Source: Escherichia coli
GTDB lineage: Bacteria; Pseudomonadota; Gammaproteobacteria; Enterobacterales; Enterobacteriaceae
NCBI RefSeq assembly: GCF_003334355.1
Contig: NZ_QOWP01000008.1
Direction: 5' to 3' (one strand)
DNA length: 64,000 nt
Part shown: piece after piece, positions 26,239 through 63,534 of the stretch
How positions within the stretch are numbered: position 1 is the first letter of the stretch
Layout of the letters: each line of letters opens with the position of its first letter
Translations under genes and position numbers: made by a program
The notes under the pieces: generated by a model
What the model was told of the DNA's origin: nothing
Databases searched by the model: none
What the model saw: only the letters and a program-made list of their open reading frames with translations

Positions 26239-26536
26239 ACGCGTGATCCGTCCTGAAGAGCGTTCACATAGATCCTGCTGATATAAAACACCCCTGTTTT
26301 CCCGTTTATTCATTGATCGAAATAAGAGCAAAAACATCCACCTGACGCTTAAATGAAGGTACTGCCTTAATTTTCTGCAGACAAAAGGCGTGACGATGGT
26401 CGAAAATGGCACTTTCGTCAGCGGGGATAATCCGTTATTGAACAATTTATCCTCTGTCCATTTCACGATGAAAAAAATGTAGTTTTTTCAAGGTGAAGCG
26501 GTTTAAATTCGTTCTCAAATTACAGTCAGGACGCGT

Positions 26537-31262: not shown

Positions 31263-31298
31263 GGCCGGGTGCGGTGTTTTACGCCGCATCCGGCATTA
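31263..31298. repeat. REP (palindromic unit) element in the pstS-pstC spacer
   Basis: ggccgggtgcggtgttttacgccgcatccggca imperfect palindrome typical of E. coli REP sequences. Confidence 0.75.
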
Positions 31299-31335: not shown

Positions 31336-33188
<1,853 letters not shown>

Positions 33189-33204
33189 TATTGCTGACAC
33201 GGTT

Positions 33205-33330
33205 TTCCCCTCACCCTAACCCTCTCCCCAGAGGGGCGAGGGGACCGACCGAGCGCCTTTTTGACTCTGTACACGGTTAACACTTTGCCGGATGCGGCGT
33301 GAACGCCTGATCCGGCCTACGGTAAGCCTG
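33205..33330. repeat. Composite extragenic repeat in the pstA-pstB spacer (C-rich palindrome plus REP)
   Basis: cccctcaccctaaccctctccccagaggggcgagggg imperfect palindrome followed by the REP-like gccggatgcggcgtgaacgcctgatccggcctac. Confidence 0.7.
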
Positions 33331-33331
33331 A

Positions 33332-34144
<813 letters not shown>

Positions 34145-57389: not shown

Positions 57390-58793
57390 GTGTCACTTTC
57401 GCTTTGGCAGCAGTGTCTTGCCCGATTGCAGGATGAGTTACCAGCCACAGAATTCAGTATGTGGATACGCCCATTGCAGGCGGAACTGAGCGATAACACG
57501 CTGGCCCTGTACGCGCCAAACCGTTTTGTCCTCGATTGGGTACGGGACAAGTACCTTAATAATATCAATGGACTGCTAACCAGTTTCTGCGGAGCGGATG
57601 CCCCACAGCTACGTTTTGAAGTCGGCACCAAACCGGTGACGCAAACGCCACAAGCGGCAGTGACGAGCAACGTCGCGGCCCCTGCACAGGTGGCGCAAAC
57701 GCAGCCGCAACGTGCTGCGCCTTCTACGCGCTCAGGTTGGGATAACGTCCCGGCCCCGGCAGAACCGACCTATCGTTCTAACGTAAACGTCAAACACACG
57801 TTTGATAACTTCGTTGAAGGTAAATCTAACCAACTGGCGCGCGCGGCGGCTCGCCAGGTGGCGGATAACCCTGGCGGTGCCTATAACCCGTTGTTCCTTT
57901 ATGGCGGCACGGGTCTGGGTAAAACTCACCTGCTGCATGCGGTGGGTAACGGCATTATGGCGCGCAAGCCGAATGCCAAAGTGGTTTATATGCACTCCGA
58001 GCGCTTTGTTCAGGACATGGTTAAAGCCCTGCAAAACAACGCGATCGAAGAGTTTAAACGCTACTACCGTTCCGTAGATGCACTGCTGATCGACGATATT
58101 CAGTTTTTTGCTAATAAAGAACGATCTCAGGAAGAGTTTTTCCACACCTTCAACGCCCTGCTGGAAGGTAATCAACAGATCATTCTCACCTCGGATCGCT
58201 ATCCGAAAGAGATCAACGGCGTTGAGGATCGTTTGAAATCCCGCTTCGGTTGGGGACTGACTGTGGCGATCGAACCGCCAGAGCTGGAAACCCGTGTGGC
58301 GATCCTGATGAAAAAGGCCGACGAAAACGACATTCGTTTGCCGGGCGAAGTGGCGTTCTTTATCGCCAAGCGTCTACGATCTAACGTACGTGAGCTGGAA
58401 GGGGCGCTGAACCGCGTCATTGCCAATGCCAACTTTACTGGACGGGCGATCACCATCGACTTCGTGCGTGAGGCGCTGCGCGACTTGCTGGCATTGCAGG
58501 AAAAACTGGTCACCATCGACAATATTCAGAAGACGGTGGCGGAGTACTACAAGATCAAAGTCGCGGATCTCCTTTCCAAGCGTCGATCCCGCTCGGTGGC
58601 GCGTCCGCGCCAGATGGCGATGGCGCTGGCGAAAGAGCTGACTAACCACAGTCTGCCGGAGATTGGCGATGCGTTTGGTGGCCGTGACCACACGACGGTG
58701 CTTCATGCCTGCCGTAAGATCGAGCAGTTGCGTGAAGAGAGCCACGATATCAAAGAAGATTTTTCAAATTTAATCAGAACATTGTCATCGTAA
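57390..58793 (+). CDS. dnaA: Chromosomal replication initiator DnaA
   Basis: ORF-track 471 aa trimmed to the GTG start at [14 protein letters not shown] (467 aa); AAA+ Walker [12 protein letters not shown]; C-terminal DNA-binding domain. Confidence 0.95.
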
Positions 58794-63435: not shown

Positions 63436-63534
63436 GCCTGATGCGCTACGCTTATCAGGCCTACGAAAATCTTGCAATGTATTGAATTTTCATGATTTTG
63501 TAGGCCGGATAAGGCGTTCACGCCGCATCCGGCA
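63436..63534. repeat. Two REP elements (BIME-like) downstream of gyrB
   Basis: gcctgatgcgctacgcttatcaggcctac and gtaggccggataaggcgttcacgccgcatccggca, followed by a hairpin plus T-run terminator (gggcggagatcatctccgccctttttatttc, ~63551-63581). Confidence 0.8.

Follow-up and report, generated by a model that had tools for sequence, protein, structure and literature searches.

The repeat described earlier as BoxC (Bergler, 1992) and later as the PIT element (Hoyne & Maher, 2000, 2002) was renamed TMECO by Holder et al. (2015; PMC4666352), and the three names refer to one and the same motif. Table 1 of Holder et al. lists 23 TMECO copies in MG1655. Copy no. 19, CCCTCGCCCCTCTGGGGAGAGGGTTAGGGTGAGGGG (NC_000913.3, 3,908,495-3,908,530), appears in their Table S2 with a distance of 128 nt to pstB and of 19 nt to pstA, and it is labelled “middle of operon pstS/C/A/B-phoU” (PMC4666352). 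The G-rich strand of the element was found by CD and NMR to form an intrastrand purine-motif triplex in vitro, and PIT elements, in tests summarised in the same paper, acted neither as promoters nor as terminators and left RNA polymerase unaffected (PMC4666352).

Two further groups of short repeats are comparable, namely the REPs (PU) with the BIMEs that they compose, and MITEs such as ERIC/IRU. REPs are present in hundreds of copies per genome; the consensus used here is an imperfect palindrome of about 35 nt, GCC(G/T)GATGCG(G/A)CG...CG(C/T)CTTATC(C/A)GGCCTAC, with a GTAG head, and a BIME is taken as at least two REPs in alternating orientation. BIMEs are further described by conserved linker motifs (S, L, s, l, r) that lie between their REPs. 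According to the references given in PMC12306157, REP hairpins block 3'-to-5' exonucleases and stabilise the mRNA upstream of them.

Here we describe the spacer between pstA and pstB in a stretch of Escherichia coli DNA of 64,000 nt (the window), in which an earlier note had seen a C-rich palindrome joined to a REP-type palindrome and had proposed a composite, BIME-like element. We consider it probable (roughly 80%) that two unrelated and already described repeat families adjoin at this site, an older REP pair and a later BoxC insert that would be a near-neutral passenger.

The pst Locus and Its pstA-pstB Spacer

The ORF list of the window gives the gene order glmS, pstS, pstC, pstA, pstB, phoU, bglG, and bglF on the + strand. 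The glmS-pstSCAB-phoU-bglGF region is 100% identical to that of K-12 MG1655, the RefSeq annotation of which confirmed the gene names, and the pstA-pstB spacer, 182 nt long, is likewise 100% identical to its K-12 MG1655 counterpart. With the flanking ORFs confirmed, both repeats do lie outside genes and inside the operon, as the earlier note had stated; the RefSeq K-12 annotation has no repeat features at this locus. The interval 33205-33330, which had been proposed for the element, encloses both palindromes that it named, but it misses a second REP (33322-33350) and the left part of an insertion (33187-33206). The features of the spacer and its borders are as follows, with the evidence in brackets:

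32298..33188, + strand: pstA coding sequence (ORF list; RefSeq annotation of the identical K-12 region)
33179..33186, + strand: direct repeat copy 1, ACACGGTT, the end of pstA through the first base of the stop codon (repeat search)
33186-33188, + strand: pstA stop codon TGA (C-terminus ...AKNKHG* compared with relatives)
33187..33278, + strand: 92-bp insertion/deletion polymorphism, the 84-nt BoxC insert plus the second 8-bp copy (allele alignment; genome counts; outgroup spacers)
33191..33270, + strand: approximate outer limits of the homology with other BoxC copies, which is weaker outside the core (copy alignments)
33197..33204, + strand: direct repeat copy 2, ACACGGTT, within the left arm of BoxC (repeat search; copy alignment)
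33207..33243, + strand: BoxC/PIT/TMECO core, type A with one mismatch (identity to TMECO no. 19; 10-copy alignment)
33271..33278, + strand: direct repeat copy 3, ACACGGTT (repeat search; allele alignment)
33287..33320, - strand: REP1, of the classical REP type, GTAG head on the minus strand (consensus search, 1 mismatch; fold; Rfam)
33322..33350, + strand: REP2, degenerate (GTAG to GTAA) and opposite to REP1 (consensus search, 3 mismatches; S. arizonae ortholog; fold)
33356..33373, + strand: pstB ribosome-binding site (GAGGA) and start codon (sequence; spacer alignments)
33371-34144, + strand: pstB coding sequence (ORF list; RefSeq annotation of the identical K-12 region)

The stretch with the ribosome-binding site and start codon of pstB is kept across genera and lies directly 3' of the last hairpin of the spacer.

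Identity of the C-Rich Palindrome

The C-rich palindrome of the pstA-pstB spacer belongs to BoxC, a dispersed E. coli repeat that is already catalogued. The exact 37-mer CCCCTCACCCTAACCCTCTCCCCAGAGGGGCGAGGGG occurs once in the window, at 33207-33243 on the + strand (0 expected in 100 shuffles), and the sequence within it is the exact reverse complement of TMECO no. 19. Its inverted arms, 33206-33216 and 33234-33244, are complementary, which bears out the earlier description of an imperfect palindrome. The pst copy has the three-block motif of 34-37 nt, CCCTCNCCC(C)-loop-GGGGAGAGGG-TTA/CCG-GGGTGAGGG(G), with the same C block, C block, G block layout on the mRNA strand as BoxC/PIT/TMECO; it is identical to copy no. 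19 and has one mismatched triplet within type A. At pst, the C-rich strand is that of the mRNA, and the G-rich strand with the triplex motif is the template. Both the family and the pst copy are intergenic, multicopy, and polymorphic between strains, and the element itself shows no difference. As DNA, BoxC at pst is predicted to form a hairpin of -10.6 kcal/mol.

The earlier note had left the family of the C-rich part unnamed and had proposed a search of the genome for further copies. Across all 5,426 complete E. coli genomes, a 63-nt query around BoxC gave a median of 18 BLAST places per genome, and the 92-nt insert query a median of 17; BoxC is dispersed, multicopy, and intergenic in E. coli, and BoxC/PIT/TMECO is the name that was missing. 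The note had also held that a motif both unique in the genome and not conserved in relatives would speak against its proposal. The first is contradicted by these counts, whereas the second does hold at the pst locus, as described below. Ten type-A copies of K-12, the pst copy and nine others, all of them intergenic, were aligned, and the 41 nt at 33207-33247 are almost invariant among them, with 35 columns identical and 2 more at 90%. Outer arms, GCACGG... and ...CCGTGC, are seen in the better copies, and the pst copy has a T-run at 33258-33262. Two other copies, at aaeR-tldD and zntA-tusA, are nearly fixed.

Rfam, searched at gathering and permissive thresholds, returned nothing for the C-rich part; its sole match, Antizyme_FSE, was at chance level (E = 1.3) and was rejected. 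Elsewhere in the window, STnc410 sRNA and AsdA (antisense RNA of dnaA mRNA) matched above the gathering threshold, at 26296-26453 (-) and 57900-57980 (-).

The REP Pair

The REP-type palindrome of the earlier note was recovered as REP1, with a single mismatch to the REP consensus and arms at 33287-33300 and 33303-33316; Rfam matched it, below threshold, to naRNA4, a REP-derived family. The word “immediately,” which the note had used for its position after the C-rich part, does not apply, as 43 nt separate the two. Next to REP1, the second classical REP consensus is matched on the minus strand, with 3 mismatches, by REP2, the head of which is on the plus strand and reads GTAA, and alignment revealed an intact ortholog of REP2 in Salmonella arizonae. 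REP1 and REP2, two REPs in alternating orientation, make up a minimal BIME. The pair resembles described REP/PU sequences and BIMEs in the near-perfect match of REP1 and the opposite orientation of REP2, but differs from them in that REP2 is degenerate, the linker is only about 1 nt, and BoxC lies outside the BIME. Like the REPs at malE-malF, those at pst are transcribed within an operon. The RepRanger supplements mention neither pstA nor pstB.

The inverted REP pair is common to E. albertii, Salmonella enterica subsp. arizonae and diarizonae, Citrobacter youngae, and one metagenome bin, and it is orthologous and intact in S. arizonae, S. diarizonae, and C. youngae. The linker between the two REPs, about 1 nt in Escherichia, is longer in S. 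diarizonae and C. youngae, at about 15-20 nt. In the alignment of long, short, and intermediate alleles of E. coli, those without BoxC have the REP pair intact. Since the pair is intact in alleles and in relatives that lack BoxC, the alignments indicate that the REP pair is the older of the two and that BoxC is a later, independent insertion.

Another inverted REP pair is present in the window, with perfect consensus matches at 63436-63464 (+) and 63500-63533 (-); an Rfam match to ES036 (CssrF) at 63457-63499 (-) overlaps this pair (63436-63533).

An Insertion Polymorphism at the End of pstA

A spread sample of E. coli has two main alleles of the spacer, 92 bp apart; a third, rare one has an internal deletion of 12 nt. 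The short allele reads ...AATAA-ACACGGTT-AACACTTTGCCGGATG..., with AACAC directly after ACACGGTT, and the long allele reads ...AATAA-ACACGGTT-(84 nt with BoxC)-ACACGGTT-AACACTTTGCCGGATG.... The third copy of the direct repeat in the window is followed by AA-CACTTT, that is, the original TAA stop and the downstream sequence of the empty site. The stop codon of pstA is TAA in the short allele and a TGA formed at the junction in the long allele, in which the old TAA comes after the second flanking ACACGGTT copy; the protein is the same in both (K-H-G-stop).

About 39-41% of the 5,426 complete E. coli genomes have the long allele. At least 80% of the spacer was covered in 2,099 of them, and the 92 nt were found at 99% identity or more in 1,962 records. 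By subtraction from the BLAST counts, the insert is present at only about 87% identity in some 140 genomes; two such variants were inspected, both with a 12-nt internal deletion, and the remainder may have the same deletion or a similar variant. In E. coli ETEC6335, the loss of 12 nt (equivalent to 33209-33220) takes out one of the C blocks, and what remains of BoxC is a plain hairpin. Carriers of the long allele include K-12, B strains, and O157:H7, whereas ST131 has the short allele.

The outgroups were collected by a PstA scan with one genome per species, which gave at least 80 loci and did not take in E. fergusonii, E. marmotae, or S. enterica subsp. enterica. The BoxC motif was absent from the spacer and the 1.5-kb flanks in 80 of the 80 non-E. 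coli pst loci listed. The E. albertii spacer has the short form with substitutions of its own, and pstA ends in AAACACGG(T/C)TAA in all relatives among the loci listed. A resemblance noticed in C. koseri (ACACGGTTGAT) proved to be an artefact of an assembly frameshift and a natural TGA stop; in the assembly of C. koseri NCTC10786, pstA seems to be frameshifted close to its 3' end, and the true stop is probably TGA.

Because the outgroups lack BoxC and the end of pstA is duplicated, the long allele is, on the evidence of these alignments, the derived one, formed by an insertion with an 8-bp duplication of the pstA end. The 1,962 records that agree to at least 99% over the 92 nt suggest that the event is recent, and the data point to a young insertion in one E. 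coli lineage. Holder et al. (2015) scored 20 of 56 strains as unaltered at the pst locus, put the others under “intergenic deletions,” and read the same polymorphism as deletion or instability (PMC4666352). Their frequency agrees with the 39-41% obtained here, but the direction of the event does not.

The reading of Holder et al. can be extended to a role of BoxC at the level of DNA, in which a triplex of the G-rich strand would stall replication and destabilise the locus, the short allele being a deletion product. It could draw on triplex formation in vitro and on the greater sequence variation around TMECO loci (Holder et al., PMC4666352), and instability would explain the variants with the 12-nt internal deletion. 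The origin of the long allele is nevertheless left unexplained, as the outgroups and the duplicated pstA end indicate an insertion, and precise excision is not needed to explain the data. In addition, the guanines were unprotected in in vivo DMS footprinting (Holder et al., PMC4666352). We therefore regard such a role at pst as unlikely and retain the insertion of BoxC beside an older REP pair as the preferred reading.

Mode of BoxC Insertion

A further ACACGGTT, copy 2 of the direct repeat (33197-33204), falls within the left arm of BoxC, where other copies of the element have GCACGGTT or GTGCGGGTT, and microhomology may therefore have guided the insertion. On these sequences, a microhomology-driven insertion is as possible as a target duplication of the transposition type. 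The best non-pst BLAST matches cover positions 12-84 of the 92-nt insert; no non-pst match spans positions 1-11, so that a donor copy with the left end of the insert (GATATTGCTG) was not found among them.

BoxC resembles MITEs such as ERIC/IRU in that it is short (84 nt), structured, and dispersed, with an 8-bp direct target repeat at pst, but unlike them it has no clear terminal inverted repeats and no known transposase. Duplication at each insertion together with terminal inverted repeats, which would define a MITE, was not seen, the 8-bp duplication being that at pst. At adk-hemH and tauD-hemB, the E. coli alleles without BoxC are replacements, with no duplications and no clean empty sites; in place of the repeat they have a short stretch of unrelated sequence that contains an ordinary terminator-type hairpin. 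Since these loci show replacement alleles, a general MITE model of BoxC is not supported, and it was set aside.

A more specific proposal is that BoxC still moves, or did so until recently, as a non-autonomous element with a short target duplication, and that its landing at pst relieves ribosome stalling induced by the REPs at the end of pstA. Stalling of ribosomes by REPs near stop codons is reported in PMC12306157, where Liang et al. (2015) is cited for it. REP1 lies 6 nt downstream of the pstA stop in the short allele and, owing to the insertion, 98 nt downstream of it in the long allele. A distance rule for REP stalling, 15 nt from the stop codon, was reportedly given by Liang, Rudd and Deutscher in 2015. 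If this proposal were true, about 40% of E. coli would have a PstA:PstB ratio unlike the rest. We find it improbable, and the insertion of BoxC as a near-neutral passenger remains the preferred account of the long allele.

Hairpins at the pstA-pstB Junction

The stable RNA structures that the earlier note had expected were predicted when the mRNA (the C-rich strand) was folded: the spacer contains three local hairpins, those of the BoxC unit (-29.4 kcal/mol, z -3.1), REP1 (-20.8 kcal/mol, z -4.8), and REP2 (-11.8 kcal/mol, z -3.5). The fold of the short allele retains the two REP hairpins. In other Enterobacterales, the 60 distinct spacers compared (37-51 nt) have a GC stem, CGGCGCGGC-loop-GCGGCGCCG, just 5' of the pstB ribosome-binding site, at a position that corresponds to about 33322-33355 of the window. 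Its bases pair in 94% of cells, compared with at most 68% in slid controls, and 5 of its 8 pairs show compensatory changes (18 double-change cells); the observed score was reached by 0 of 500 shuffles. To our knowledge, this stem has not been described. Escherichia and Salmonella have the REP pair in place of the GC stem; Superficieibacter and C. koseri have both REPs and the old stem, with one REP in C. koseri.

In the pstS-pstC spacer (93 nt; predicted fold -35.1 kcal/mol, z -5.3), a near-perfect REP-like palindrome (GCCGGGTGCGGTG...CGCCGCATCCGGC) at 31264-31294 directly follows pstS; it probably stabilises the abundant pstS transcript segment.

The three stable predicted hairpins of the pstA-pstB spacer could be taken as BoxC and REPs forming one functional, BIME-like composite, selected to set the PstA:PstB ratio through segmental mRNA stability. 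Some hairpin, supported by covariation, occurs here in every member of the Enterobacterales examined, which is in keeping with such a composite, as is the stabilisation of mRNA by REPs for which PMC12306157 gives references. The BoxC part, however, is absent from about 60% of E. coli, from E. albertii, and from all other genera examined, and BoxC and the REPs differ in age and origin. Nor, as far as we know, does BoxC figure among the recognised BIME motifs. The composite of the earlier note thus comes apart, alleles and relatives without BoxC keeping the REP pair, and the lack of promoter, terminator, or RNA polymerase effects of PIT elements (summarised in PMC4666352) weighs against it as well. 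A selected composite is quite unlikely.

BoxC might instead be a weak intrinsic terminator, or attenuator, so that strains with the long allele would transcribe pstB-phoU less. In its extended form, the hairpin of BoxC (-29.4 kcal/mol) stops 2 nt 5' of UUUUU, and much of this T-run is seen again after the right arm in most K-12 copies, where one of its columns reaches at least 90% and two others reach at least 70%. Convergent gene pairs flank 6 of the 10 K-12 type-A copies, a terminator-like layout for the C-rich strand, and the alternative alleles at adk-hemH and tauD-hemB have their terminator-type hairpins where BoxC would be. Yet promoter and terminator scans of the pstA-pstB spacer, the latter by pattern, gave no match, the stem base of the pst copy is weak and interrupted, and the published tests of PIT elements were negative (summary in PMC4666352). 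Moreover, pstB and phoU are needed downstream in K-12, so that any stop must be leaky. Taken together, attenuation by BoxC at pst is very unlikely.

Under the preferred reading of two adjoining repeat families, an old inverted REP pair, a minimal BIME, would have replaced the small GC hairpin that most Enterobacterales keep. The extreme end of pstA later received a BoxC unit in one lineage of E. coli, an event that duplicated 8 bp (ACACGGTT) and turned the stop from TAA to TGA with the protein unaltered. In pst mRNA, the REP hairpins may be barriers to 3'-to-5' exonucleases, as the general REP literature suggests, and such a barrier would favour the pstSCA segment over pstB-phoU, or give rise to decay intermediates. 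The ancestral GC stem probably protected the pstSCA segment likewise, and BoxC would be a third, redundant hairpin. A role of the pst REPs in mRNA decay is plausible, since a small hairpin with compensatory changes is kept in most Enterobacterales; an effect on the pstA:pstB ratio is plausible for the REP hairpins, and the case for it is weak for BoxC. As BoxC is absent from most E. coli and the promoter, terminator, and RNA polymerase tests of PIT elements were negative, BoxC at pst is probably dispensable and near-neutral.

Implications

The significance of the pst copy itself is small, the element, the family, and even this copy being in the literature, and most E. coli having no BoxC here. 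What is added to the knowledge of BoxC is that the polymorphism at pst is, judging from the allele and outgroup comparison, an insertion with an 8-bp duplication inside the stop codon of pstA and not a deletion. Strain variation at BoxC loci has so far been read as “instability” or deletion, and at pst it appears as a clean, recent insertion. As K-12, B strains, and O157:H7 have the long allele and ST131 has the short one, what is learned of pst expression in K-12 may not hold exactly in other lineages. The pstA-pstB junction always keeps some hairpin, be it the ancestral GC stem, the REPs, or the REPs with BoxC, and this hints at a real role for RNA structure at this position.
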